Shown here: positions 6,805 to 27,600 of the stretch, in pieces
Numbering within the stretch: the stretch's first letter is position 1
Layout: the number at the start of each line of letters is the position of its first letter
NCBI GenBank assembly: GCA_000004695.1
Contig: CM000151.3
Location: 2,592,001 to 2,656,000 of the forward strand
Source of the DNA: Dictyostelium discoideum
Lineage: Eukaryota
Direction of reading: 5' to 3'
Length of the DNA: 64,000 nt
The notes under the pieces: generated by a model
Databases searched by the model: none
Seen by the model: the letters and a program-made list of their open reading frames with translations, nothing else
What the model was told of the DNA's origin: nothing
Position numbers and translations under genes: made by a program

Positions 6805-7293
6805 AAAAATAAATAAATGAATATAATTTAATTGTTTTTTTATTTTTGAAGCATTTTGTGTGTCTATACTAAGTTCATATTAAAAATAAAATCATTGTTA
6901 CAAATAAAACTAATTAAAAAATTAAAAATAAAATGAAATGTGAAGTTCAAAAGTTTCAAAAAAAAAAAATTTCTTCTAATTTTAATTTAAACCAAAAATT
7001 TTATTTTTTGTAATTGTTTTATGTAAAAAAAAAATAAAAAAAATGAAAATCAGAAATTTATAAGTTTTTTATTTTAAAGAATATTTAGTAGGTAATAAAA
7101 AATAGATTTTTTTTTAAAAAAAAAAAAAAATATGGACAAAATAAATATTTATTTTTTTCAAATGTTTTTGATAAAAAAAAAAAAAAAAAAGATTTTGAAT
7201 ATTGAAGAATTTACTATAAAAAAAGAAATGTAAGGTGAAGTGTATAAAAAGTAACAAAGAGTAAAAAAGTGGCAAAGATATTTTTTCCTAAAC

Positions 7294-7336
<43 letters not shown>

Positions 7337-7716
7337 ATAACTTTGTGAAGTGTTGTTCGAAGGACACAGAAATACACATTGGCTTCAATCGAATTTTTGG
7401 ACTATATATAAAAAAAAAAAAAAAAAATTTACTAATTGTATTTTTTTTTTATTTTTTTTTTTAATTATTTTTTTTTCCAAAACGATGTGTGATCACTCCG
7501 TTTTTAATTTTTATAATGTTTTTTTTTTAACTTTGGCGATGTGTTTTTTAAGTGTTTTTATTCCAATTTTCAATTTCTATTTTTGTATTTAAATTGAATT
7601 TTACAAACCATTTTTTTTTTTTTTTTCACCCCTTTTATGATTATAATTGTTTTATAATTTATCATCAAAAAAAAAAAATATATATATATATATATATTGG
7701 TAAAAGAATAATAAAA

Positions 7717-8921
7717 ATGTCTTTAGTACCACCAAATTTTTTAACTTTAAATGTTTGCCAAGATGCTTTTAATAATTTATTTTCATTATATTTTTCAGAA
7801 CATGATCATGACCATGAAGAAGATGGTGGTGGTGGTCATGAAGGACATATACATGCAGGTGTTTCATGTGAAGAAGATCCAGATAAACAATATAGTAGAC
7901 CGATACATATTGCAGCGATTTTCATTATTTTGGCTTGTTCCATTTTTGGTACAGTTATTCCAATTGTTGCCACTCATGTTAAAAAATTAAGAATTCCAAG
8001 ATATGCTATTATCGTTGGTAAATCAATTGGTATTGGTGTAGTTTTATCATGCGCTCTCATTCATATGTTATTACCAGCAGTTGTTGCACTTGGATCTGAC
8101 TGTTTACCAGATTCCTGGCATGAAGGATATGAAGCTTATCCTTACCTTTTTGCATTGTTAGCTGGTATTGTCATGCAATTTATCGATTTTACAGTTCTCC
8201 AATATTTAACCCACAAAGAACAAAAAAAATCAATGTCATTAGATTCATCAACCAAAACAGACAATTCATTAAAAGAAGTCCATACCACTGGAAATGTTGA
8301 AAATTGTCATGGCAGCCATGTTCATGGAGGTCTTTTAATGGATCCAGCTGCTTTAAAAACTATTGAAGCTTATTTATTGGAATTTGGTATTACAGTTCAT
8401 TCAGTTTTCATTGGTTTGGCTGTTGGTGTTGTTGATGATAAAATTTTAAAAGGTAAATTAATTAATAAACACAAAAAACTAATTATAATAATTAAATATT
8501 TATTTTTATTTTTATTTTTATTTTTATTTTTATTTTAGCATTATTGGTTGCATTAGCTTTCCACCAATTTTTTGAAGGTGTTGCACTTGGTTCAAGAATA
8601 GCAGACGCTAAATTAACATCACACTGGCATGAAGCTTTGTTGACTGCAATTTTCTCTTTTTCAGCTCCAGTTGGTATTGCGATTGGTGTTGGTGTTGCCT
8701 CAACACTCAATGTAAATGGTGCAACCTATTTAATTGTTCAAGGTGTTTTCGATAGTGTTTGCGCTGGTATTTTACTTTACATTGGTTTTTCTTTAATGAT
8801 CAAGGATTTCCCAGAAGATATGGAACAATTATGTAAAGGTAAAAAATTTGAATATTTATTACGTGCTGGTTTATTTATCGGTCTTTGGCTTGGCGCAGCT
8901 ATGATGGCTTTTATAGGAAAA

Positions 8922-8930
<9 letters not shown>
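7717..8930 (+). CDS. ZIP (ZRT/IRT-like) family divalent metal (zinc) transporter, 2 exons
   Basis: ATG at 7717. His-rich loop EHDHDHEEDGGGGHEGHIHAG. Multiple TM helices. ZIP signature motifs HSVFIGLAVG and HQFFEGVALG. Exon 1 7717..8452 (donor G|GTAAAT), 86-nt AT intron, exon 2 8539..8930 (acceptor ttttag). Phase-1 junction yields …ILK-A-LLVALAFHQFFEG…. TAA stop at 8928..8930. Confidence 0.85.
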
Positions 8931-8961
<31 letters not shown>

Positions 8962-9295
8962 ATTTTAAATTTAGTTTTAGGTAGGACAAAAACTAAAAAA
9001 AAAAAAAAAAGAAAATATTAAAAAATAAAAAAGAAAATGTAAAAAAATTAAAAAATTGTAAAGAATTAAGAAGTAATAATGATCATATATTTCTGGATTT
9101 TTAAAATTTTAAAAAAATAAAAAAATAAAAAAATAAAAATCCAAGTTTTAAAAATAATAAAGTTTTAAGTTATTATTATATAACTCCAATTTGTTTTACA
9201 AATTTTATAACCACTATTTTTTAAAGAAAATGAAAAATCAGATTATTAAAATCTTTATAAAAAACTCAGGGAATTATGATTTTTAATAATAATAT

Positions 9296-9328
<33 letters not shown>

Positions 9329-11091
9329 ATAATAAAGAAAAGTTATTTTAAATAAATTATTGAAAGTTAAATTTTTTTAAAGGAATTTTTTTTAATTTTT
9401 TTTTTCTTCTTTAACTATTTATTTATTTTTATTTTATTTAATAAAAATATTCATTAATTTGTCTGTTTAATTTTAAAAAAATAAAAAATCGGTTTGTATA
9501 CAGGGTGTGTTTGAATACAAATATCAAAACTGGCAATTACTTGGATTTTCTTTTTTTATACAAAAACGGATTTTGTAAACGAAGATAATTATACAAAGGT
9601 TACCCTGAAATAATAAATTAATTTATATTTATTTGTTTTTATTTGATGATATATCTTGATACAGTGAAAATGACAGTAAATCTATTTAAAATTCAAAAGT
9701 GGTAAAGTTTGAGACTGTGTAGGTGTTAATTTAACTATTTTTGTTAATGTGAGTAGTGGGTTATTTTTTTTGTGTGTTTAAAAAATAATACTAATAATTT
9801 TTTTTTTTTTTTCTATATTTAAAAAAATAAAGGAAAATACAATAGTAATAAGTGTGGTGGTGGTGGATAAAAATTAAAAATAAAAAAAATAATAATAATA
9901 AAATTAAATCAATACACAAACACACACACAACTATGTTATTCTTTGACTCTTTTAGCTACAAAAAAAAAAAAAAAAAAAAAAAAACTACTTAAAAATATT
10001 TATAACTTAAATAATAAATCAGAAATATTAATAATTTTTTATTCCATTAACCGTTAAGTGGTTTTTTTGTATATGAATTTATTTATTTTTATATTTATTT
10101 TTCATTTTTATGATAAAAATATCAATCTCTACACATTTTTGTTTTAATTATTATTTTTTTTTTTGTGTTTGTATTTTTTTTTGTATTGCCAAGTAAAGTA
10201 GGGGGTTACTCCAAGTTTAAAAAATGTTACAAGTAAAAAAAAAAAAAAAAAAAAAAAGTTTCCACATGTGAATTTTCTTAGTGGAGTAAAACTACAACTT
10301 CTTTTTATAAAATCAAAAATATAAATAACTTTTCTAAAAAGAGCATCAGTTAAAATTATTAGTATTTTTTTTTTTTTTTTTTTTTTTAAAATCTACAACT
10401 TTTTTTTTACCTTTTTAAAGGGATTTTTTTTTTTTTTTTTTCCAATTATTTAAACAATAAGTTCAATCTTATAAATCAATCTAAGTATTTTTTTTAGAAA
10501 AAAAAAAAAAAAAATTTATATATATAAATAATAGTTATCTTTTAAAATAAATCAAAAAAAAAAAAAAAAAAAAAAATGTCTCTTTTTAGTAAGTATACAT
10601 TATATATTAATATATATCTTTCGAGTCAATTTCTAATTATTTTTTTTTTTTTTTTTTTTAATAGATAACTTAAAATCAATCAGTTCATTTTCCAACTCAA
10701 TCGATAAAATAAATACTACAAATAAAATGAATAATAATTATTCACCAAATACAAATAGTACTTTTATAGTAAGAGATAAATATGAATCAAAACAAGATTT
10801 TAATGACCGTGTCCTTTATGATAGTTTATATCCATATTATTAAAAATAATAATAAAAAAAAAAATAAAAATAAAAATAAAAAAAAATAAAAATAAAAAAG
10901 GATAAATTAAAATAAAGTATTTGTTTGATGTTTCATTTTTTTTTTTTTTTTTTTTTTGAAAAAAAAAGATATGTTAATTAAATGTTTAGTATAAAAATAA
11001 TTATTGATCGCACACTCAAAATAATAAATCGGAATTTTTTTTTTTTTTTTTTTTTTTTTACATTAAATGATTTAGAATTTAGCTAAATTAT

Positions 11092-11825
11092 TTATTCGTA
11101 TAAATTTGGGTTTGGTTTAACTTCAGTTAATAATTCTTCTGGTTTGAACCATAAAGCAATTTCTCTGTTGGCAGATTCAACTGAATCAGAACCGTGGATG
11201 ATGTTTCTACCAACATCAACACCGAAATCACCACTTTATTTTTGTTATTGTTATTTTTTTTATTTTTTTTAAAAAAAGGTATTACAAGTTAGTAAAATTG
11301 TGCACAACAATAATAATAATAATATAAATAAAATAAAAATAAATTGATAATTACCGAATTGAACCTGGGGCTGAGGCTAATGGGTTGGTAACACCGATCA
11401 TTAAACGGGCAGAGGCAACAACACCTTTACCTTCGAAGACCATAGCAACGACTGGACCAGAGGTAATGAATGAGACTAAACCACCGAAGAATGGTCTTTC
11501 TTTGTGTTCAGCATAGTGAGATTCAGCTAAGTCTTTGGTTGGAACTAATTGTTTTAAACCAACTAAAACGAAACCTTTCTTTTCGTATCTGGCGATGATT
11601 TCACCAACTAAACCACGAGCAACACCGTCTGGCTATGAATTAATAAAATAAAAATAAAAAAAAAAAAATAAAAATAAAAATAAAAATAAAAATAAAATTT
11701 TATTAGTAAATTAAAATAAATATGTGCTAAAAAAAAAAAAAATAAAATAAAATGTAAAAATAAAATAAAAAACTTACTTTAACAGCAAGGAAAGTTCTTT
11801 CTTTGTTTACTTTATTTGTGGACAT
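11092..11825 (-). CDS. ndkC: Nucleoside diphosphate kinase (cytosolic NDK), 3 exons, 155 aa
   Basis: Hand translation of minus-strand exons 11778..11825, 11355..11632, 11092..11233 gives [155 protein letters not shown]. From memory this matches the D. discoideum cytosolic NDP kinase, including the NDK active-site NIIHGSD. Introns GTAAG…TAG and GTAAT…AAG. Confidence 0.88.
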
Positions 11826-12127
11826 TTTAATCTTATTAGGTTATGGTAACAAAAAGAAAAAAAAAAAAAAATGAAAAAAAAAAAAAAAAAAAAATTCGAC
11901 ACCAAAAAAAATTAACAAAAAAAAAAAAATAAAAAAAAAAAGTAAAAAATAAAAATTAAAAAAAAATGAAAATTTATTGATACCCGAACGAACTGCAAAA
12001 AAAAAAAAAAAAAAAAAAAAAGAAAAAAATGGGGTTCACGAACTTAAAAATAGAATTCGCTAAAAAAAATAAAATAAAATAAAATAAATAAAATTTTTTT
12101 AAAAAAAAAAGGGTGTGTTATTTTTTA

Positions 12128-12149
<22 letters not shown>

Positions 12150-12158
<9 letters not shown>

Positions 12159-12852
12159 GAAAGAATTTGAACTACCATATAATTCATCACAACGTTTATC
12201 GAAAGAATTAATCATTACATCTAAAGAAGAGGCAAAGAAATTTTCCATTAAAGTTGCATAGAATGGTGATTTGAATTGATATATTAATTTACAATGAGCA
12301 ATGGTGGTATTTGGAGTTTGACCTTGTTTAAAACTCCAAGTATTAATTAATTTATGAAATAGTGGTGTATCAGTTGCAGTGGATTCAATGAATTTGTTCT
12401 CTTTATATACAACTTTACTAACATAACTTTCTTTAATCGTACCTTGTCCAACTTCTAATTCAGCTTCAAAATGATTTTTATCTTTTTCTCTTTTCAATAT
12501 TGTTGAATTTAAACAAAATGGTAAAAATTCTTTATAATCTTCAACTTTTATAATAACACTATAAACTTGGTTAACTGGATACCTATTATTTATTAAATGT
12601 TATAACATTTCATATTAATATAACTAATATTATTCATATATATTATTCATGATGAATGATAGATTACTTTAATTCTTTAGTCATTTCTTTTGTAACTATT
12701 TTTGTGGTTGGTTGATTATGTGTATCACTTGCATCGTTGCTACCAAATAATTTATTGAAAAAGTATCTATCTCCATATCCAATATTATTATTGCAACCAC
12801 TTTTAAGGATTGACTTTGTTTTTGGTATAACTAAATTTGAATATTTTATCAT
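12150..12852 (-). CDS. COQ10-like START/SRPBCC-domain protein (coenzyme Q-binding protein family), 2 exons, ~205 aa, with N-terminal mitochondrial-presequence-like exon
   Basis: The tool ORF 12150..12497 begins at TTG. The frame stays open upstream through …YPVNQVYSVIIKVEDYKEFLPFCLNSTI… (START/COQ10-like core) to an acceptor aataatag| at ~12582. Upstream exon 12668..12852 (MIKYSNLVIPKTKSILKSGCNNNIGYGDRYFFNKLFGSNDAS…TKELK) ends AA|GTAATC; phase-2 junction restores frame. 85-nt AT intron. Confidence 0.65.
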
Positions 12853-12918
12853 TTTAAAAAAAATAAAAAATAAAAAAATAAAAAATAAAAAAATAAAAAA
12901 TAAATTAAAATAAAAAAA

Positions 12919-12961
<43 letters not shown>

Positions 12962-13220
12962 TTTTTAATAATTTTTATTTTCAATTCCTTTTCGAGATAA
13001 CCAATCAAATTGTTTCATTTAATTTTGAATGCAAATATTCTAATTTACCAGAAATTGGTTAAAATTTTTTTTTTTTGTTTTAAGTTTATGATAATTTACT
13101 TTTTTTTTTTGGTAATTTAATAAAAAAAAAAAAAAAAATCTAAAAATAGTTTTAGTGATTGATTATAGTGAAAAATTTTCCTATAATCGATAGTTTTTTT
13201 TATTTTATTTATTTTTATAT

Positions 13221-15886
13221 CTAATTTAAAGCTCCTAATTTCTTTGACATTGAAACAGCAAATTTTTTGTTTTTCTTTGTTTTGTGAACAGAGTAAACAA
13301 TACTAACAACAATTACAGTTGCAAAACCTGCAGCACCAATAGCAATACCAGCGATTTGACCTTTTGTTAAACCAGATTTCTTTGAACATATTGAATTTTC
13401 ACTTGATTGTGATGCCGCATTTTGGTCGATTAAAAGTGAAAAATCAGGATCAATCGATACAGATTCACTATAATGTGGAATTATTATACCAATATAGGAT
13501 TGTTGAGCATGTGTATTTGATTCAATTGTATTCATTGAATCATCAAGTAAAACATTGTCAACGCTAACTACAAGATCATCAACGATAGCTCTTTTTAAAA
13601 ATCTACCGTAAACGGAATGATCATCAATTTGTAATTTAATAAAGTTTGAATCGTCACCATTTGTGGTATCACCAAATGATTTTGAGGAACATACATCATC
13701 ATTGCTATTATCACCTGTGGAAAGTAATGTTGCAGACATTACCAATTGGAGTTGATTTAATGCTGATGAGAATGGGTAATTTGTAATATCAACATTGAAT
13801 TTAATTGATGATGGATTCATTGTTAATTGTTGACCTGCGAATGTAACGCTTGAAGTTTTTGAAAACCATTGCATTGTTGTTGTAACATTAACTTTTTCAT
13901 CTTTACCTTCAATTGAAATTGTTGTATCGTATCTACTAGTATTTGAGTTTATTTCTTTAAATGACCATGTATTTAATGGAATGGTTTTGATTGGATTACC
14001 ATTGAAATCTAATTCTCTTAATGAAACAATTGAAATTAATGATTTGTAAATAATTTGTGGTGGTAAGTTTGGATTACCGCCAGTGGTCGTAGAAGAACCA
14101 CCACCATTATCACCTGGAATTGGAATTTCTATTGATGGATTACTTCCATTAATTATTGGTGGTATAACTTCTAAGAGTTTTGAACTACAATCTTTACCAT
14201 AATATGGAGTTATACAAACACAACCATTCTTTGTACAAACACCTTGATTTTCTCCACCACATTCTGGGTTACCTAAACATTTTTGAGGTGGATTTGTTGG
14301 AATTGGTGATTTTGTTGGAGGTTGAGTTGGAGGTTTAGTTGGAGGTTGAGTTGGAACTGGGTCAGTGTAGTTGAAAAAGTATAGTTCTGGTGTAATTGTA
14401 ATAATGTTTGATTTTTTGACTGGTTGTAATGAATTTAAAAGTTGAACTGTGAATGATTGATTTGTTGGTTTGATACCTGTAATTACTAAGGCACTATTGT
14501 ATCTATTACCTGTAATTGGTTGAGATACTAATTGGGAATCATAGTAAACAATATTAACAGTATCTATTGAAGAGAAACCTCTACCCTGTAACAATATATC
14601 ACCTCCTTGATTTGTTATACCTGTTGAAGATTTTATAATTGGAATATCCATTGAAAATTGATCAGTTGTAATAAACCATGCAGTTGAACCCATAGATTTA
14701 AGTAAATCACTTGAATAGCCTGAATAATAGCCACCATTATTAATGAAACCATAAACTGAAACTGTAAATCCGAGTGGATAACCAAAGCCAACTGGTATTT
14801 CAACTGTACATGAATATTCTGCATCTGTTGATGTTCTTGATTCAATTTTTGAAATGCATTCTACTGAACCTAAATTTTCATCAATTAAATAAATAGCTGG
14901 AAATTGGTTATTCTTTAAACCACTATCTAAATCTTGTGCTTTGAAATTAAAAGTAATTGATCTATCTTGAGAACCAACATCAATATTTGTTTTTGATGCT
15001 GTAAAACTAATTAAAGTTGGTGGAGATGTATCTAATGCTGTGCTACAATTTGTGCTATCTACTGAAAGTGTCAATGATTCATATGGTAAAAGGTAAAATG
15101 GATTGACAACTGAAACAATGCTAAGAGGACTTAGAACTCTTTCATTATCAAGCACAGCCATATAATTATTTACATTACCAAATGTATCGCCAAGATAAGC
15201 ATTGACTATAATATAATCTTGAGCAATACAACCATAGTTATTTAAATTATCTTGTAATGGTATTGAAATTAAATAATCTGCTTTCCATTTATCTCCACTT
15301 CCTCTAACAGCTGTTGAAGGTGAAATTGAAAAATTATATACTGACGAATCTAAACTACCTTTAACAGTTACAAAACCATTTAAAAATCCATTAATTTCAT
15401 CTTCAATTGTTAATAACCAACCAACATTTGATGTTCCAAAATCTGATTGCGATTTTTTAACTATTTTTGTAACTATTGGACCTACAATATCAATATTCTC
15501 TGAAATTATATTTAATTGATATTTATCTGGTAATGCTGTGTTTATGAGTGTATTATATTTGGCAAATGTTAAAGTCCAATCCAACACACCTGGTACTATA
15601 TTTGCTGGCATTTTAAACATTACACTAAATCTACTATTTGATTCATCCCATTTTGCAAATTTATAATTAGGGCTGTACTTTAAGGAATAATCTGTTTGTG
15701 CATTATTATCTTTTAATGTTTTTGGTTCAGATAATGAAAAACCAATTGCTAAATTTTTATAATTTTCAATATTATCAAATGTAAAATACATTATATTATC
15801 TACACTTTGATTTGTAACATGGACATTATTAAATAAGAATGAAATATTTTTTAAATCTTTATAATAATTTACTGTATCTATTTTTA

Positions 15887-15921
<35 letters not shown>

Positions 15922-16354
15922 AATAAAATTTAAAAATTAATATTTTAAACCATTTCTTTTTAAATTTACATCTTAATAGTATATATTAATATATTTATAA
16001 CTTACTATTTAATTGAATTCCAGGTAAAATCATAATTTGATCAGGATTGGTAATTGAAAATGGATATAATGGGGTATAAGTTGTTTTTAAATCCAATTCA
16101 TTAATAAGTGAAACTGCATTTTGGGTATCAATTCCCAAGTTTACTCCATCATGCACATATTCCCAAGCACCATTTAAATTATTACCTGATACTAAATTTT
16201 GAGATCCAAATCTTAAATAAACACCATCTATAATATGATCGATATATTTAACACCTACATCATCTTGAGCTTTAAAAATGACTAAAAATGAAAATTGGAA
16301 AATATTAATCCTTTCAACAGATGTAATCTTTCCTAGACTTCCATTGACTAATTA

Positions 16355-16390
<36 letters not shown>

Positions 16391-18042
16391 CTCTGTTAGT
16401 TAATTTTTAATAAAAAAGAAACAAAAGTATTAATTATATCATACCAATTTTATAAAAATCTTTATTTACTTCAACAAATGATGAACCACAGTTCCAAGAA
16501 AAACTTTGTTGAAATGATTTAGGTGAAATAGGAGTGGAAATACTCATTTGATTATTATCATTGTTACCATTAATAAATCCAAATGGGAAATCATAAATAA
16601 AACCAGAATCAAATATTTGTTTGAAATTACAAGTCAAAGTTTTAAAATCATATCTGGAAAAACCATTAAACTTTACAGTTATAAAATTTGATGTTGTGGT
16701 ATTATCAAGGCTAACGGTTGGTGTACCCAATGGATTTGAAGTTGTTACTAATAGATAGTTTGTATGGTTTATTAGTTTAAAATCATAAGAATATTAAAAT
16801 TTAAAATTTAAAAATATTAAAAAACTTACTTTGGAAATTAAATGTTGAATTGAAATCATTCTTGAATGAGTTATCCTCCTTTTGGGAATAAAAATTAAAA
16901 TTTTGTTCTCCAAACAAAAGTGGCATTGGGTTAACGAAATATTTAACCTTACCTTTTACACCAGATATTGGTTTAGGAGTAAAGTAGAACGGACTACTTT
17001 CAAAAGAATAAACTGGTCTTTGAATTGATGAATTTGATGTGAATTCAATTCCAGTACCATACAAAGCATTGTATCGAAGGTCTCTCCACTTGTATTCTTG
17101 AATATCAGTTATTGAAATAATTGGATCTTTTATAATAAAAAAATTTGATTGTTAATATTAATATTATTATTATTTTTTTTATTTTTTTAATATATATATT
17201 GATTTATATTAAACTTACCTAAAAGATTAAATGGTACTGAAACTTTTAAAACTTGATTACTTGTAAATTTTAAATCAATATCCCATATATTTGAATTTGG
17301 TGCAATTTTTAAATAATAATTTTCACTATATAAAATTCGGTATTGAGAGTTTCCCATTCTATTTAATGTCGCAAAATCACTCTCAGGCATTGTACTTTCA
17401 TCTGGTACTCCATTTAATCTTACAATTGATGAATATTTATAAACATCATTCCAAGTAACCTCTTGAATAATATCTATTGTTACTAATGATACTTCAACCT
17501 CTATTTAAATTTTATTTTGAAATGTAGAATTTAAAAAAGATATTAATAAAAAAAAATAAAAAAAAAAGGATAAAAATTTAATTAAAAAAAAATAAAAAAT
17601 AAATAATAATAAAAAAAATTATTTGTTTAAAAAATAAAATAAAATAAATGAAAAAAAAAAATAAAAATAAATGAAAAAAAATAAAATAATTACCTTTGCA
17701 AATATAACTAACATTTAAATATCCATTGTTTTGATTACCATCATTAACTGTAAAAATAATATTTTTTGTTTCCCCAATGTTTAAATACTCAAAATGGCTA
17801 TAAAGACTAAAATCACTGGTTGAAGTTAAAAAAAAACTAGCTGGAAATAAATTATCTATATTGGATTGTTGAGTAGAATTATTTACTAAAATATAATGAT
17901 AAACACCACAAACGCTTTGTGTCAAATATTGAGGGTAACTTATTAATAGATTATTTGGAGTAATATCTGTTAATATAAATTGCGATTTAATAAATCCAAA
18001 ATTTATTAATAATATATAAAAAAATAAATAAAAAAATTTCAT
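13221..18042 (-). CDS. Large (~1400 aa) type I transmembrane glycoprotein with signal peptide, EGF-like Cys module and Pro/Thr-rich stalk. 6 exons, all introns phase 1.
   Basis: Exon 1 17694..18042 starts MKFFYLFFYILLINFGFIKSQ (signal peptide). Exons 17219..17500, 16830..17126, 16445..16747, 16006..16347, 13221..15877 hand-spliced with GTAAGT/GTAAT/GTATGA donors and AG acceptors; every junction is phase 1. Terminal exon contains CLGNPECGGENQGVCTKNGCVCITPYYGKDCSS (EGF-like), TQPPTKPPTQPPTKSPIPTNPPQ stalk, many N-x-S/T sites, TM segment IAGIAIGAAGFATVIVVSIVYSV and short cytoplasmic tail. Tool ORFs 16434.., 16801.., 17187.., 17578.. are its internal exons. Confidence 0.7.
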
Positions 18043-18406
18043 TTTTTAAAAATAATTTATTTTATATTTATTTTTCTATTTATTTATTTTTCTATTTATT
18101 TTCTATTTAATGATAATTTTTTTTTTTTTTTTTTTTTTTTCGTAGGAAAGAAGTTGAAAAAAAAAAAAGAAGTAAATAAAAGATATTTTTTCGAGCTCGA
18201 AAAAACCCAGCTAAAGATATTTTTTCAAATTGAAAATCTTTACTATTTCTTTTATTTTATTAATTTCTTTCACACAAAATTCGTTGCTTTATCTAGATTA
18301 ATTAATTAGATTGCATTTTTTTTTTTTATTTATTTAATTTTATTTTTTTTTATTTTTTTTTTTTTTTTTTTGTTTTAAAAGAATCAGTTATTTGGAAAAA
18401 TTGTAA

Positions 18407-18439
<33 letters not shown>

Positions 18440-18530
18440 AAACGAAAGATATTTTTAAAAAACGCGTCCTGTATCCAATTTTCCTGATATTTTTTAATTT
18501 TTTCTTATTTTTTTTTTTATTTACTAAAGG

Positions 18531-18960
18531 CTTCTAATTTCCTTGCATTTTTTGTTTTTCTTTGTTTTGTGAACAGAGTAAACAATACTAACAACAATTA
18601 CAGTTGCAAAGCAAACAGAACCAATTGTAATACCAGCGATTTGACCTTTTGTTAAACCAGATTTCTTTGAACATATTGAATTTTCACTTGATTGTGATGC
18701 CGCATTTTGGTCGATTAAAAGTGAAAATCAGGATCAATCGATACAGATTCACTATAATGTGGAATTATTATACCAATATAGGATTGTTGAGCATGTGTAT
18801 TTGATTCAATTGTATTCATTGAATCAATTGTATTCATTGAATCATCAAGTAAAATATTATCAACACTAACTACAAGATCATCAACGATGGCCCTCTTTTT
18901 AAAAATCTACTGTAAACTGAATGATCATCAATTTGTAATTTAATAAAGTTTGAATCATCA
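18531..18960 (-). pseudogene. Degraded duplicate of the 3'-terminal exon (TM segment, C-terminus, 3' flank) of the 13221..18042 glycoprotein gene, located just upstream of that gene's promoter
   Basis: 18531..18960 aligns at roughly 90% with 13241..13670 (e.g. gtgaacagagtaaacaatactaacaacaattacagttgcaaa…ttgacctttt gttaaaccagatttctttgaacatattgaattttcacttgattgtgatgccgcattttggtcgattaaaagtgaaaa). It differs by a 1-bp deletion (gtgaaaatcagg vs gtgaaaaatcagg), an internal 17-bp tandem duplication (ttgtattcattgaatca x2) and substitutions that break the frame. Tool ORF 18870..19064 (…DDSNFIKLQIDDHSVYSRFLKR…) is the remnant frame. Confidence 0.7.
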
Positions 18961-19089
18961 AGCAAATTTTTATTTAGGAATTTCAAAAATATTTCTCTAA
19001 AGGATTTCTTATCAAACCTCATTGAAAATTTCAGCACTAAAGTGTTAAAAAAAAAAAGAGGCAACCAACTAGCACATAATTACTTTTTA

Positions 19090-19136
19090 ACTTTTATTTT
19101 TATTTTATATGCAGATTATAAAATAAAAATAAAAGT
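19090..19136. repeat. Perfect 20-bp inverted repeat with 7-nt spacer (hairpin-forming)
   Basis: acttttatttttattttata-tgcagat-tataaaataaaaataaaagt; the arms are exact reverse complements. Confidence 0.8.
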
Positions 19137-19443
19137 CCCCTTAAGTTTTTGCCAACCAAATCCAAAAAAACAAATTGTTTATATATGGTGAAAATAAAAT
19201 AAAATTACAATTTTTAAAAAAAAAAAAAAAATAAAATTAATATGCAAGTGAGTCGAATGTAAAACAGACCTAAATTTAATTTAACCTTTGGTTAATTTTA
19301 CAATTTTAATTTTTTTTTTTTTGTTGTATTTGTGATTTAATTTTTTTTTATTTTTTTTATATTTTATTAAATAATAGGAATTTATTTTAAAATTATTTAG
19401 ATTTCTAATTTCCAATCAATTCTTGTTTTGTGTGGGTGAAAAT

Positions 19444-19483
<40 letters not shown>

Positions 19484-19652
19484 AAATAATGTGGTGTGTG
19501 GGATTTAAATTAACTAAATTTAATTTTACGTTGCCTTACGCACACCAACATTTTAATGCATTGACTAAACATATATTAAATATTAATTAAAATTACAATT
19601 TAAATTTTTTTTTTTTTTATTATTTTTTATAATTTTTTTAATTTTATATAAT

Positions 19653-19764
<112 letters not shown>

Positions 19765-20259
19765 GGATTTGCTTTTAAATAAAATAAACAAATAACTTTT
19801 TATTTTATTTTTTCTGAATTTTGAAATTTCTTTTGATTTTTGTACAAATATAAGTAAATTATTTTTATTTACAATTAATTTGTTATTTTTAAAAAAAAAA
19901 AACATTTTAATTTAAATGAATTTAATATATAAAGTGGTGATAGAATAGACTGAATATAATAATTTTTCGGGAATAACTTTACATTAATAACCGAATCTCC
20001 CAAATTTAATATTTTAAATTCAATTTTAATTAATATACTTTAATTAAAATCAATTTTAATTAATATATTCTAAAAATGGAAATTTAAATTAATTTTTTTA
20101 TTTTATATAAAAAAGGATACTATTTTTTTTTTTTTTATTTTATTATAAAATACAAATATATTTTAAAAAGGTAAAAAATAAATATATCATAAACTTTAAA
20201 TATATATATTAATAGTTTTTTAAAAAAAAAGATAAAAAATAAAAAAAATAAAAAAAATC

Positions 20260-20484
20260 ATGTTAAAAATTTTAATAGCAATTTTAGTGGTGATCTCATT
20301 GTTTTCAAATGTAAATGCAATAGATATAGGAGATTATCAAAATGAAGCCCAGTGTGCCATAGGTTGTGTTAAAAATGCACCAAATTATTCATATGAATGT
20401 GCAAACTGGAGTTTCCCATCATGTAGAGATTTATTAAAAAAATGTGCAATAGAATGCGCAGAAGCTTATGAAAATGCCAGATAA
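20260..20484 (+). CDS. Small secreted cysteine-rich protein (74 aa: signal peptide plus ~54-aa mature peptide with 6 Cys)
   Basis: ATG in A-rich context. MLKILIAILVVISLFSNVNA (signal peptide) then IDIGDYQNEAQCAIGCVKNAPNYSYECANWSFPSCRDLLKKCAIECAEAYENAR, TAA stop. Single exon. Complexity and codon usage (GC at third positions) higher than flanking DNA. Confidence 0.5.
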   Translation: MLKILIAILVVISLFSNVNAIDIGDYQNEAQCAIGCVKNAPNYSYECANWSFPSCRDLLKKCAIECAEAYENAR

Positions 20485-21528
20485 TTAAAATTATGAAAAA
20501 AATGGGCTGGTCACAAGGTTTTGTTTAAAAAAATGGACTTAATGTCTGATAACAAAGTTTGTTTAAAAAATAAAACAAATAAACATTAATAAAAAAAAAC
20601 CAAAAAAACATAACAATTTTTTAATTTTATTAAATTGTTTAAAATGTATTCAAAAAATATAAAGAAAACATTTAATCTTTGTATTAGTTTAAAAGTTTTT
20701 GGTATGAGAAAATGTGAATATATATTTTATGATTATGAAAAAATTAAAACCAAAATGAACGAGATTTTTTTATTTATTTATTTTTTATTTTTAATTATTT
20801 TGTTTTTTTTTTTTTTTATTTTTATTTTTATTATTTTAAAATCATATTATCAAGTATCTATAATTTTATTCATAAAATTAGTAATTCAATATGTCAACAA
20901 CTAGTAATGGTAATGATAATCCAGAAGCAGGTATGGAAATGATTTAAATATAGATATTACTCAAAATCTTGAAATAAATGCAAATCAACCACGACAGAAA
21001 ACAAATGATATAGTAAACCAATTTCCAACATATACACCATCATTACAACATCAACCTCACAAATTATTTTAAAGTCAATAACAAATACATTAAGAAAACA
21101 ATAAACACTGTTGTAGCCAACCAACAAATGTTTTAAGATTGTGACCCATATTATTCAAAGGATTGTACTAACTTATAAGATGCAAAATTTATTGTTCAAA
21201 TCATTACAATGTTTATATTTCACAATCTATTAAATAAAACAAAAATATAAAAAAATTTAAAACAATTGTTTTATAATTGTTTAATTTTATTATTATTATC
21301 ATTATTTTTTTTCCCCAAAAAATTATTTTAATATTTTTATATTTAGTATTTGGAATTTATTTATCTCTGTTCTTCCAATTTTTTTCATTATTTAATTAAT
21401 TATCAAAAAATTGTCTAAAATGATACATTATTTATTTATATATCAAAACAAACAGTGTTTTTTTTTTTTTTTTATTTAATACTATTTTAAAATTTTTATT
21501 TATTATTTTATTTTAAATTTATAATTTA

Positions 21529-24500
21529 TTATTTTGTTAAATCTTGTAATTTTTTCAATAATAAATCAATGAGAGTTGATTTTTTATCGATTTGGTTTAA
21601 AATGACGTCAGATAATTTACCACCTAATTGATTAACTTCACGTTCAAAAATGGATTGTTTTAAACGTTTAAGGAATACTTCAATCTCTTGTGGAGATAAT
21701 TCATTTGATGGTGTTTGATTAATTTGTTGTTGAATTTGTTGTTGTCTTTGTTGTTGTTGTTGTAAAAGTTGTTGATGTTGATGTGGAGTTGCATAATTTG
21801 TTGAATAAGGTGTTGAATTTATTGGAATTTGTGATACCTGAGCTGATGGTGTATTATTTTGTTGACCTTTAAAGTAAGAGAAAACTGATGATAACATACC
21901 ACCACTATTTTGATTTGTTTTTGAAGATAAAAATGCTGATTCATTATTCTTTTTAATGTTTGAGGTAGTTGTTGAAGCATTTAAATCTGTAATCTTTAAA
22001 TTTGAACCACCTTGTTGTTGTTGTTGTTGTTGTTGTTGTGTTGTTGGATAATAAGCACTACTAGCTAAAGTTGGACTTATGGTGCCTCCAATTGCACTAC
22101 TATAGAAATTATTATTTGAATTTTGGAATAACAAATATAAAGAATTACAAAAGTAGAAAGAATGAGAAACAATCAATAACAATAGGATTTCAATATTTTC
22201 ATGGATGATAGAGATTTGAGTTTCAATATCAATGATTTTCTCTTTCAAAATATTTTCAACCATATGATTTCTTTGAGTTGGGCCAAATGCAGGATAATCT
22301 TCACCAGTTTGTAAGATCTCTTGATATTGATAGTTGGTTAATTGATCATAGGATTGTAATAATTTGAAACATTGACTTAAATCCACCTTATAGAATGAAT
22401 ATTGAAGAATATTATCAACCAATATATTAATAGCTAAATCAATTGATGGTAAAATATTAACTCCATTATTTCCATTATTATTATTATTATTACCATTATT
22501 ATTATTATTATTTCCATTGATAATACTATTATTCACTCCAAAGCCACCAAATATACTATTCTTATTTTGATTATTATTATCATTATTATTATTATTATTT
22601 TTATTATTAAATTTATAACTATTATTATTAATTATATTATCATCATCATTATCCATATCACTATTCATACTATTATTATTATAATTATTGTTGCTATTAT
22701 TATTATTGTTATTATTAATATTATTATTATTACTATTATTACGATTAGTTGATCTTAAACTTGAAAATGATTGGAATTGTTGATAAATATTTAAATTTGA
22801 ATTAAAACAAACGAAACCAAAATTTGAATCTTGAACAATTGAAACTTTTCTGCAATATAATAATAAATCATGAATGATTGAAGTGATAGTTTCTTTAATT
22901 AAAATTTGGAATTGATTCTTTCTCTTTGATTTCTTACCATTGATGCTACCATTATTATTATTATTATTATTGTTATTATTATTTGAGTTTTTACTTGTTA
23001 AACCAATATTAACACCACCAATATTAATATCATCAGGAATATTCTTAAATTGATTTTCAATTGAACTCTTTGGTAAATAACTAAAATCAATTTTCTCGGT
23101 TAATAATTCTTCATCAATATTTTCAGGTTTAACCAATTCAATGATTTGTTTTGAATTTACTGAATATTTAACTAATAAATTAATTAAACAATAATGGAAT
23201 CTATTAAATTGTGTTCTATTATGGCTACTTGTAGTTGAAGTTGAAGAAGAGGTGGTAGTTGATTTTTTAAAGAATAAACTTGAAACTTTTGAAAATAAGA
23301 AACAAGTTAATTTTAAAACTTTTAAGCTTGATAAAGTTGGATGACTAAAACTACTTTGATCTGATAAAATAATGATGAATAAATCTGAATGATTTGAAAG
23401 GAAATCAAATAATTCTTGATAAATTTCATTTCTATCACTACCAATTAAAACTGTACCACCAACATTGTTATTATTATTAATATTACCATTATTCTTTGAA
23501 GTATTATTACAATAACAACATAATGAAGCGAATAATTGTAAAATTGGTAAAAGTATCTCTATAAATTTACCAAAGATTTTATCGGTTGGAATATAATTTA
23601 AAAATGGTGATTTAACAAAACTACCAATTACATTATTATTCATTAAGAGGTGAACACCATCCATTTGTTGAGAAATCTTTAAGAGTAAGGACATTTGTGA
23701 TTTATAGACATGTAAATCCTTTGGATCAATGTTTTCCCAATTATCTGATAAATATTTTGAACAAGTATCATTGATCATATTGATGATGAATCCTTTGTTT
23801 TGTAAAAACATTAATGATCTATGTCCACAAAGATTGTCAATTGATAAAATACTTTGCATACAACTTATAGCGGTAATTCTCCAACCTCTACTAAATGAAT
23901 TACAATCACTCGATAAGATTCTAATAAATTTATCTTCAATTTTACTAATGATTAAACCAATATTTAAATTACCATATCCTTGTTCTTTATCTTGATTATT
24001 TTTATTTTTACTTTTATTATTCATTTCAACGACATTATTAATTGAGGTTGATAAAGGTGATAATGATGGAGTTGTTGGAGTTGTAGCTGATAAATCCAAA
24101 TATTGAATTAAACAAGTATAACTAATACCTCTTATTGCTTGATGTGGTGATTTTAAAACAGTTTGTAATAATCCTTCAAAGATTGATTTCATCTTTTGTT
24201 CAATTACATTTGAATCTGTGCTATTGGTAGTGAGTGAAGAATTGATAAATAATTGATAACTATCTTTTTTCAATTTCAATGTGAATAAAATGGTTAAAAT
24301 TGTATAACCAATTGATAATGTTGATTCAATTGGATTACGTTCATTTGAGAAATCAATAACTATTCTTTGTAATAATGATAATAATAATGATTCATCCAAT
24401 GTATCAATTTCAATTGTATTTTGAGCTAAAGAAATATTAATAAATGATTTCCAACCATCTAATGCTTTTAATTTACTATTATATAATTGAATACTTGAAT

Positions 24501-24626
24501 TAATTAAACAACATTCTTCTAATTCTCTTTCAATTTCAAATTCATTTGAAAATCTATTAAAATCATTCTTTAAAACCTCTCTAATTTTAATAATATCTAA
24601 TAATTGACTTGTACCACCATTAGTAA

Positions 24627-24696
<70 letters not shown>

Positions 24697-27600
24697 GTTA
24701 TTATTGTTATTATTATTATTGTTATTATTATTATTATTATTATTATTTGAATTTAAATTATTAATATTAATATTTGTTGTAAAATATTCAATTAAATTTG
24801 GATACATTGAAAATATTCTTGGTCTATTAATTTCAGGTAATTGAAATTCAATTGTATTATAGAGTGATAAGATATTAATTGGTGAAATACCCATGATTAA
24901 ACCATTATTAATTGTACCATTAAGACCACCAATACCACCATTCATTGAAGGTTGATTTAAGTTCATCAATGATGGAAAGATTAAACGAGTTAAGAATTGT
25001 TTCATTTCGATTGAATAAGAATTTTGAATTGAAATGGAACAAGTCTTGAAAACCCATGACATTGAAGAGATCAATGCTTCAGTTCTTCTCTCTGATGAAC
25101 CATTGATTGTAATTGCATTTCTTAATATTAATAAACTATCATGATAATAGTTTGGAAATTCCTCTTGAATATATTTGATCATTGGTTTCCAAGTGATTGG
25201 ATCACTTGACATTTTCCAAATGATTTCATGATAACAATCGACCAAATGTGGATATCTCTCTACGAATTGTGAATTCATAACATTCTTTATGATCAAAGTT
25301 AAACATGATTTACTATTTGGTATGAAATCCTTTGAAAGATCTAAATTTGATGAACAACCCAATAGGAAATGAGCCAATGTATATCTTCCACTACTAATAT
25401 TTGAAAGACATAACATAATCAATTGAGCTATTGTCCATTGTACGGAATTACTTGCATATCTAATGAATGAAATGGTTTGATCATAGTTTGTACCAGAGAA
25501 ATCCTCGAAATTGGATTCATTGAATTCCATCATCTTTATAAACTTGGAAAGTATTAAATTTGGATCACTATCCAAGAAAACCGTTGAAATTTGATGAGTA
25601 TAACATTCGAAACTATAGATTAATCTAATTGCACGTAATGAAATAGCTGGTAATTCATGGTCAATCAATTTGGCAATTGACACAATTGGTCTGCTATAAT
25701 CCATATTTGATAAATTAACAACTAAACTCTTTGCATTTTCAATATCGTAAACTGTATTATCAGAGATTAACAATAACAAATCTAAACATTTCAATACTAA
25801 TAAATTAAAATCATCATTATCTTGTTGTTGTAATTGTTGGAATACTAAATTTAAAATTACTCTTGATGAATCTTGATTATAACCTTGTTGTTGTTGTTGC
25901 TGTTGTTGTTGAATTTGTTGTTGAATTAATATTGATTGATCATTTGAATAATCAATTATCTTTATAATATTCTCTAATGTTGTTTTTTTACTTTGTTGTT
26001 GTTGTTGTTGTTGCTGTTGATATTTATTTTGCTGTTGTTGTTGTTGTTGATACAAATTACTAGATAAAGAAGAACGATTTAATTCAATATATAATTGATA
26101 ACATGGATGTTGTTTATCAATTTGAAAATTTTGAATTGATTGATTGAATTGAATGATTGAGAATTCAAATATTTTCATCAAAGTTAAAGCAAATTTCCAT
26201 TTTTCATCCAAAGTATTAAATGATTTTATATTTAATAAATTGAATAAATCCATACAACTATCTAAATAGGATTTGAGTTTCAAAGATTCTTGATAATGAT
26301 TACTCTTATCGAATAGGAATGATGATTGTTGAATCAATTGTAATAACAACTCTAATGATTGTTGAGTGAAAGATAATTCATTTAGCCCACCAATTGCACT
26401 AAGACCACTATTGAATAGATTGGTTTCATTTATTAATCTCCAAATATCAGCTACATAAATTGGATATTGAGAATATGATGTAATCACTGATAATGCACTA
26501 GATTTTAATTTTGAATCAACTTGTGATACTGCAAATTGAAATGCTAATGAAATCAATGGTCCAATCTTTAAAAATACATTTCCAACTGCCATTGAAGATT
26601 CAACCAATCTTGAAATCAATTGGAAAATACTTGAAAGTGCATCACTATCTTTCTCTGATAATAATAATTGTGTAATCTTTACAGGTGATGTTGTATTTGC
26701 TGTATTTGAACTTGTTGTTGAATTTGGTGTATTTGGTGTATTTTGTTGTTGAGGTTGTTGTTGAGGTTGTTGTTGTTGTCCTACACTTTGTTGCATTGAC
26801 GATTGTTGTCCTTGGTATTGCATTGTTGGTTGGAATTGTTGATATGGTGTATTTGGTATTTGTTGGTTATTATAACCTTGTTGTTGTTGTTGTTGCTGCT
26901 GATGTTGTTGGTGTTGTTGTGGAGTTGATGAAATTTGTTGAGTTGTAGTCGTTGATGAATTCATTTGATTCGATTGAATTGATTGACTAAATTCAATACT
27001 ATTTAAAGCATGAGCATAGGATGAAAAATTTTGGAATAATTTTGCCCATGTAAATTGCGCACTACCTTGAGCAAAGAAATTGAAAACTTCATTTGTATTA
27101 CATCTAGCTAATGACCCCATTAATTTAAATGATGAAATGATTAAATCATCATGAATTCTAAACCAAAGATTTTGAAAATAATTAATTTGTTCACAAATTC
27201 TCCAAAATTCAATTGAACTATTATTATGATTATCAAATATATTTGACATTACTAAATTAAATGAATTTATAAATTCCATATCTTATTTTATTTTTTTTTA
27301 AAATAAAAAATATTAATATAAAATGTCTTTTTCTTTTTAAATTTAGAAAATAAAAAAATAAAAAAATAAAAAATAAAAAAATAAAAATACATACTAGTTG
27401 GGTGACTTGATAAATTTGATAAAAATCTACAAGATAAAATATTTATAAATGAACCAAATAGGATATTTAAAGGTGACAATTGATATTCTTGTGTTTGAAC
27501 TGCTTGTAAAAGGAATTTATATGAATCATTTTCAGGGGTAATACGATTATTATTATTATTACTATTACTATTACTATTACTATTACTATTACTATTACTA

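Follow-up and report, generated by a model that had tools for sequence, protein, structure and literature searches.

Unprocessed pseudogenes occur as relics in tandem gene families that evolve by birth and death together with gene conversion, the globin pseudogenes and the CYP21A1P/CYP21A2 pair being the textbook relics of this kind. Within the social amoebae, the tgr family of Dictyostelium cell-surface genes has 38 members plus 26 pseudogenes in AX4; it has been shaped by rampant duplication, recombination and partial locus duplications (PMC12745789). A further group of surface proteins is represented by comC, which encodes EGF domains, has been described as secreted and transmembrane and is restricted to group 4 dictyostelids (PMC4931340). 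In this study, we describe a disabled, truncated and position-conserved remnant of a ComC-family gene in Dictyostelium discoideum, and we show that it has exchanged sequence with its live neighbour since two D. discoideum strains diverged.

The remnant resembles the globin and CYP21 relics in its tandem origin, in the loss of most of one copy, in its disabling indels and in a patchy homogenisation with the live neighbour, converted and unconverted parts being phylogenetically incongruent. It differs from them in that only a 3' stump of about 440 bp remains, which lies inside the upstream region of its partner, and in that it has no phenotype attached. With the tgr genes it shares the genus, large secreted or transmembrane multi-domain surface proteins as products, copies in tandem, numerous pseudogenes and gains and losses that differ by lineage among the same genomes. 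However, the parent gene lies outside the tgr family, with the Pfam architecture ComC_SSD/DUF7034/DUF7035/DUF7949; the locus is a simple pair or triplet and not a hotspot of 100-250 kb, and no allorecognition role is known for this gene. As in ComC, parent and lost paralog carry a ComC supersandwich domain, a DUF7949 EGF-like Cys-rich module and a single C-terminal TM helix, a likeness that for this member is drawn from sequence: the nearest AX4-named relatives among the matches listed, DDB_G0291027 and DDB_G0291045, are about 48% identical.

The window, i.e. the whole stretch of 64,000 nucleotides that was analysed, has a GC content of 21.5%, and its ORFs are rich in polyN/polyQ. Coordinates refer to the window unless a locus is named, "gene" and "parent" both stand for 13221..18042, and fragment and gene both lie on the minus strand (Table 1). 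Seven loci were compared with it: L001 on a contig of GCA_054883475.1, L002 and L006 as two different loci of a wild D. discoideum isolate, L003 of D. citrinum, L004 of D. firmibasis, L005 of D. dimigraforme and L007 of D. cf. discoideum.

Table 1. Features of the relic, its live partner and their surroundings in window coordinates
Feature	Position	Strand	Basis or remark
Intact gene, 1409 aa, ComC-family type I membrane protein	13221..18042	-	Threading, Pfam, homologs
Six exons of the gene	18042-17694, 17500-17219, 17126-16830, 16747-16445, 16347-16006, 15877-13221	-	
Gene segment homologous to the fragment	13221..13656	-	Alignments
Pseudogene fragment, aa 1266-1409 of the parent	18517..18960	-	Alignments, tblastn, collinearity with L007 and L006
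Fragment content: end of ComC_SSD domain, juxtamembrane region, TM helix, cytoplasmic tail	18517..18960	-	
Fragment, 5' part	18855..18960	-	9/104 mismatches (8.7%), 2-bp insertion; homology stops sharply at 18960
Fragment, interior: recent gene-conversion tract	18629..18854	-	Partner is gene 13344..13552; interrupted by 18-bp duplication and 1-bp loss
Fragment, unconverted old TM-plus-tail part	18517..18628	-	16.8% diverged from the gene; 14-bp deletion
Ancestral TAA stop of the fragment	18517-18519	-	
AT-rich spacer, 474 bp, from relic stop to gene ATG	18043..18516	-	Presumed promoter region
Segment of 1157 bp, 14% GC, adjoining the 5' breakpoint of the fragment	18961..20117	.	No counterpart in L006

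Threading of the D. discoideum hypothetical protein KAM9952192.1 (P0001) onto the gene revealed GT/AG introns and zero differences. The ORF of exon 1 starts with a hydrophobic, signal-peptide-like N-terminus, and the protein scores above the Pfam gathering thresholds for DUF7035 (103.5 bits), DUF7034 (120.4 bits), DUF7949 (57.3 bits), an EGF-like Cys module, and ComC_SSD (71.6 bits). The C-terminus continues after the ComC supersandwich domain with a TM helix and a short tail. Dozens of paralogs of this large ComC family are found in every group 4 Dictyostelium genome examined. For the last exon, no AX4-labelled protein (DDB_G...) exceeded 48% identity among the matches listed, and the exact-sequence cluster of P0001 contains entries from new assemblies only. 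The AX4 protein set may lack the gene, model it differently or list it as a pseudogene. Compared with its counterpart in the wild isolate (L006 10997-15811), amino acid identity is 74-89% in the N-terminal exons and 93% in the last exon; judged from these sequences, the extracellular N-terminal part of the ComC-family protein may be fast-evolving between D. discoideum strains.

Protein P0005 (67% identical, L002 10001-14811) was considered as a polymorphic allele of the gene and rejected, since its locus is non-syntenic; it represents a separate paralog. The P0005 gene adjoins a gene for a polyketide synthase of about 3000 aa in the wild D. discoideum isolate. Over its final ~430 bp it retains about 80% identity with the fragment region, and the C-terminal segment is therefore conserved across the subfamily.

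Comparison of the window with itself by blastn revealed a repeat (E = 5.6e-177) in which 18517..18960 matches the final ~436 bp of the gene in the same orientation. Local alignment of parent 13224..13656 with copy 18524..18960 gave 399 identical bases out of 416 (95.9%), a value that falls to about 88% when the 35 indel positions count. An earlier reading, made from the sequence alone and without database searches, had put the identity at about 90%, which is a fair estimate. It would have given up the duplicate for an identity below about 70% or for similarity confined to low-complexity sequence; neither is the case, the identity being 96% or about 88% and the copy consisting of coding DNA, not of low-complexity sequence. 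The homology that this reading placed at 13241..13670 is real, its end lying at 13656 and not at 13670. Likewise, the span does hold the TM segment and the C-terminus of the protein; the 3' flank that had been included is similar at chance level, as 41.5% of 400 random AT-rich segments score equal or higher. An extension of the blastn match to 18360/13065 was dropped on the same control. What had been called a duplicate of the last exon contains only the last ~440 bp, or about 16%, of this exon (2657 bp).

Four small indels distinguish the copy from the gene. Two additional base pairs at 18891-18892 shift the frame. A perfect tandem duplication of 18 bp (TCAATTGTATTCATTGAA; 18806-18823 and 18824-18841) leaves it intact. 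One base pair is missing from a homopolymer between 18723 and 18724, and 14 bp are deleted in the cytoplasmic tail with a junction at about 18546/18547. The sequence-only reading had recognised the 1-bp deletion and the duplication, the latter as 17 bp long, and had overlooked the 2-bp insertion and the 14-bp deletion. The parent protein can be traced through the copy only via three frames (0, 2, 1), each closed by stops; correspondingly, tblastn returned pieces at aa 1266-1288, 1306-1337 and 1337-1391 in three different frames. Hence the copy, which lacks aa 1-1265 of the parent, bears the disabling lesions of a pseudogene. The absence of upstream exons that had been noted before was borne out by both tblastn and tblastx, which detected no upstream exons or other family pieces elsewhere in the window, nor any family pieces in the stretch between 18960 and the next gene, a large one at 21529..27279.

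The position of the copy is conserved. The loci L003 to L007 are syntenic, since they have the downstream neighbours Polyketide_cyc, NDK and Zip in common. In the D. cf. discoideum locus, the same large gene as in the window lies upstream of a ComC-family copy (L007 7767-11077), after which come a spacer of 470 bp and a gene of 1410 aa. This upstream copy spans aa 20-866 and 1253-1408, its tblastn matches being separated by intron-sized gaps. Window 18960..13097 aligns without a break to L007 10648..16437, and likewise from 18960 to L006 10047 onwards; because the alignment is single, continuous and collinear, the window fragment is the positional counterpart of the 3' end of the L007 copy. 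As annotated, the L007 upstream paralog (7154-11086) appears as two genes of 637 and 361 aa; it is internally deleted by about 386 aa (aa 867-1252 of P0001).

Longer or intact paralogs also occur in two further species. On the D. citrinum contig, which is cut within the copy, 598 or more codons stay open up to a stop that lies 514 bp before the gene, so that the copy is intact over the last 598 codons, the part present on the contig. The spacers of 514 bp in L003 and 470 bp in L007 are similar in length to the 474 bp in the window. D. firmibasis has an intact tandem paralog of 1413 aa and a shattered third copy between this paralog and the gene. The shattered copy (L004 7241-9265) is reduced to about nine small pieces that stem from different exons, with the piece at 7829-7925 inverted, and a 63-aa gene model overlapping these pieces (7528-9033) is probably spurious. 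One-to-one orthology across the three D. firmibasis copies is uncertain, the positional equivalent of the fragment being the shattered middle copy. In D. dimigraforme (L005), tblastn detected no copy or fragment upstream of the gene; either the tandem pair is younger than the split from this species, or it was lost without trace, or it originated repeatedly. A protein search with the D. citrinum upstream copy matched P0067, which led to L007; the D. firmibasis and D. citrinum upstream paralogs were not among the matches. With longer or intact paralogs at or near the position in D. cf. discoideum, D. citrinum and D. firmibasis, the earlier suggestion of a tandem array with a degraded neighbouring paralog holds. 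The locus is also structurally dynamic, as had been proposed, with deletions specific to strains and species.

The wild D. discoideum isolate, about 90% identical to the window in this region, also has the fragment (L006), which here is about 110 bp longer at its 5' side. None of the four AX4-type indels occurs in it; instead, it has an 18-bp deletion, a 2-bp deletion and a 2-bp insertion of its own. When gene and fragment of both strains are compared, 9 sites split genes from fragments and 2 sites split the strains. Private changes number 15 and 16 in the fragments vs 3 and 8 in the genes, which argues for relaxed constraint on the fragments. From the lesions and the elevated substitution count, the stump appears to be without coding function. 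At L006 9936-10470, the public annotation (model 10001-15814, P0051, KAM9957498.1) joins fragment-derived exons onto the real gene, giving a spurious protein of 1467 aa instead of about 1409, in which the fragment is read partly out of frame ('MMMYVPQNHLVIPQMV...').

Divergence between fragment and gene is distributed very unevenly. The interior (18629-18854) has no mismatch in 208 positions, as compared to 19/113 (16.8%) in the TM/tail part (18517-18628) and 28/217 in all of the remainder (Fisher p = 3.5e-9 for interior against remainder). Gene and fragment of L006 differ at 13/209 of the same interior columns (p = 2e-4), so the interior is not intrinsically invariant. In neighbour-joining (NJ) trees of the interior, the AX4-type fragment pairs with its own gene (bootstrap 95%), and so do the copies of D. 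cf. discoideum (96%), D. citrinum (82%) and D. firmibasis (99%), i.e. grouping is by strain or species. The TM/tail tree, on the other hand, unites the fragment with the upstream paralog of D. cf. discoideum (93%) and the three genes with each other (78%). The corresponding distances are 0.038 to this paralog vs 0.163 to the own gene; the D. citrinum upstream copy, at 0.198, is no closer than the own gene, and the orthology signal thus stems mainly from D. cf. discoideum and about 125 sites. At eleven sites the upstream copies agree with each other and differ from all three genes; 10 of these sites fall in the TM/tail part, which shares derived states with the upstream paralogs of both D. cf. 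discoideum and D. citrinum. This grouping with an upstream paralog and not with the own neighbour is what a degraded paralog, as had been supposed earlier, should display.

Taken together, the identity run between diverged flanks, the incongruent trees and the divergence of the same columns in a related strain form the standard signature by which the interior is recognised as a recent gene-conversion tract inside older paralogous sequence. Two slippage-type changes, the 18-bp duplication and the 1-bp loss, lie inside the tract and must therefore be younger than it. Homogenisation is not restricted to D. discoideum. In the last exon, paralogs within a species show 91-100% identity in most 300-column windows (74% in one D. 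cf. discoideum window), and orthologs between species 71-89%. The D. firmibasis tandem paralogs (L004 1-3970 vs 10767-14604) are 98.3% identical in the last exon vs 80.6% in the upstream exons, which, together with L007, suggests that conversion, or selection against conversion, is bounded near the start of the last exon. Since the N-terminal halves of the two D. cf. discoideum copies have only about 43-65% protein identity, the duplication is old and the 3' similarity has been kept by conversion. The sequence-only reading had considered unequal crossing-over between paralogs; the exchange that the data show is non-reciprocal homogenisation, i.e. gene conversion.

Beyond the 5' breakpoint of the fragment, the window has 1157 bp of 14% GC where L006 has its additional ~110 bp of pseudogene. 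This segment, 18961..20117, has no protein or TE homology and no TE-like ORFs; searches for its origin in the window and in all compared loci gave matches to microsatellite and low-complexity sequence only. It holds a long (TAT)n microsatellite (about 19648-19764), a palindrome of 47 bp (19090-19136) and, near 19490-19560, short GC-richer islands with inverted GGTGTG/CACACC motifs. Rfam gave no match above gathering thresholds in the whole window and, at E <= 1 in 18000-20600, chance-level hits only (sno_ncR3 with 19.9 bits against a cut-off of 88, rncO with 18 against 43). A tRNA scan of the window found none. Further upstream, 20260-20484 (+) encodes an ORF of 74 aa with a signal-peptide-like N-terminus and eight cysteines, of which diverged copies lie at L006 9576-9785 (61%) and 8581-8772 (43%), with a weak match in L007. 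By its sequence features, this resembles a gene for a small secreted protein that varies in copy number and lies beside the relic.

We consider it very probable that the fragment is the dead relic of a lost upstream tandem paralog of the ComC family, the 3' parts of which were homogenised and the interior of which was recently converted. Homology to the gene, disabling lesions and an origin by genomic duplication are the marks of an unprocessed pseudogene and are all found here, the last of them in the collinear copies of L007, L003 and L004, as the fragment itself lies within one exon. A second ComC-family gene would once have stood head-to-tail immediately upstream of the present gene. In this old tandem pair, gene conversion would have homogenised the 3' parts repeatedly within each species. 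In the D. discoideum lineage, a deletion probably stripped the upstream copy of its promoter and of about 90% of its coding sequence and left a 3' stump of about 540 bp, which is still present in the wild isolate. In the AX4/AX2-like lineage, a rearrangement may then have moved the 5' boundary by another ~110 bp, and the four small indels would have been added. After the split of the two D. discoideum strains, one further conversion event brought 208 bp of the stump's interior to complete identity with the live gene; the TM/tail end escaped it and kept the sequence of the upstream paralog.

As it stands, the stump would be a direct repeat with a passive role, lying 5.3 kb away from its partner and still able to exchange sequence with it. 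More speculatively, non-allelic recombination between the two repeats could lead to loss of the gene or to its renewed duplication. It is possible, though we think it unlikely, that the stump, with its identical core of 208 bp, acts as a donor of upstream-paralog sequence to the membrane-proximal part of the live protein, as a recurrent substrate of non-allelic recombination, or as both. If this were true, wild strains would be expected to differ in the presence of a ComC-family surface protein or to carry mosaic alleles of it, with dynamics similar to those reported for the tgr loci.

A role for which the relic is maintained, be it as conversion donor to the live gene or as a co-opted promoter, 5' UTR or upstream ORF, appears improbable to us. 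At gene sites 13425 and 13416, the AX4-type gene has the state of both D. discoideum fragments, which differs from that of the other strain's gene and of the D. cf. discoideum gene and favours transfer from fragment to gene. However, both sites are synonymous, and site 13372 favours the opposite direction, from gene to fragment. The fragment is only 474 bp from the ATG of the gene, and exons derived from the fragment were joined to the gene when the wild isolate was annotated automatically; the N-terminus of P0051 is partly out of frame in the fragment, though, which marks this model as an annotation artefact. Moreover, the fragments gain frameshifts and about 2-5x more private substitutions than the genes, their 5' boundary and lesions vary between strains, and D. 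dimigraforme has no copy.

Still less probable is a recent partial segmental duplication, the other origin offered by the sequence-only reading, by which the last ~430 bp of the gene would have been copied upstream in the D. discoideum lineage and have decayed slightly. Even though an overall identity of 96%, a fully identical stretch of 208 bp and the closeness of the copy to the gene in the same orientation are what such an event would leave, the identity is uneven along the copy (8.7%, 0% and 16.8% diverged). The high value is due to the interior conversion tract between flanks diverged by 9% and 17%. The grouping of the TM/tail part with the D. cf. discoideum upstream paralog (93% bootstrap) and the long or intact paralogs at the collinear position in sister species speak against it as well. 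So does the presence of the fragment, with independent lesions, in two D. discoideum strains that are about 10% diverged in the region.

We give almost no credence to a processed pseudogene, i.e. a retrocopy of the mRNA 3' end, or to a sequence captured by a transposon. The lack of introns is uninformative in a fragment wholly inside the last exon, and A-rich sequence does follow its stop codon. Yet the collinear L007 copy extends over all exon regions with intron-sized gaps, an A-rich flank is ordinary for intergenic DNA of 12-14% GC, the flank similarity is at chance level, and the fragment adjoins its parent and has no discrete poly(A) after a 3' UTR. Retrotransposons of the TRE family usually target tRNA genes, of which the window contains none; 18961..20117 is without TE-like ORFs or homology. 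AT-rich Dictyostelium genomes are hard to assemble, but a collapsed or misjoined repeat is just as implausible, for the same fragment (99.5-100% identical) lies at the same place in L001, an independent long-read assembly, with L006 also containing it and L007 a longer copy. The L001 contig is chromosome-sized and 99.85% identical to the window over 24.8 kb; its assembly is among those described by Holland et al. 2025 (PMC12745789). From this near-identity, the window probably represents a laboratory genome of the AX4/AX2 type.

The dead relic of an upstream paralog is an ordinary case of birth-and-death and concerted evolution and involves no new mechanism. For annotation, the fragment merits the label of a pseudogene remnant, all the more as its equivalent in a wild isolate has already been merged with the gene in a public annotation. 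The locus provides a natural series that includes an intact tandem paralog, an internally deleted copy, a stump of about 540 bp, a stump of 444 bp and nothing at all. Alongside this series of copy loss, concerted evolution is seen, confined mainly to the last exon. The locus thereby illustrates the turnover of a large family of ComC-like surface proteins in social amoebae.
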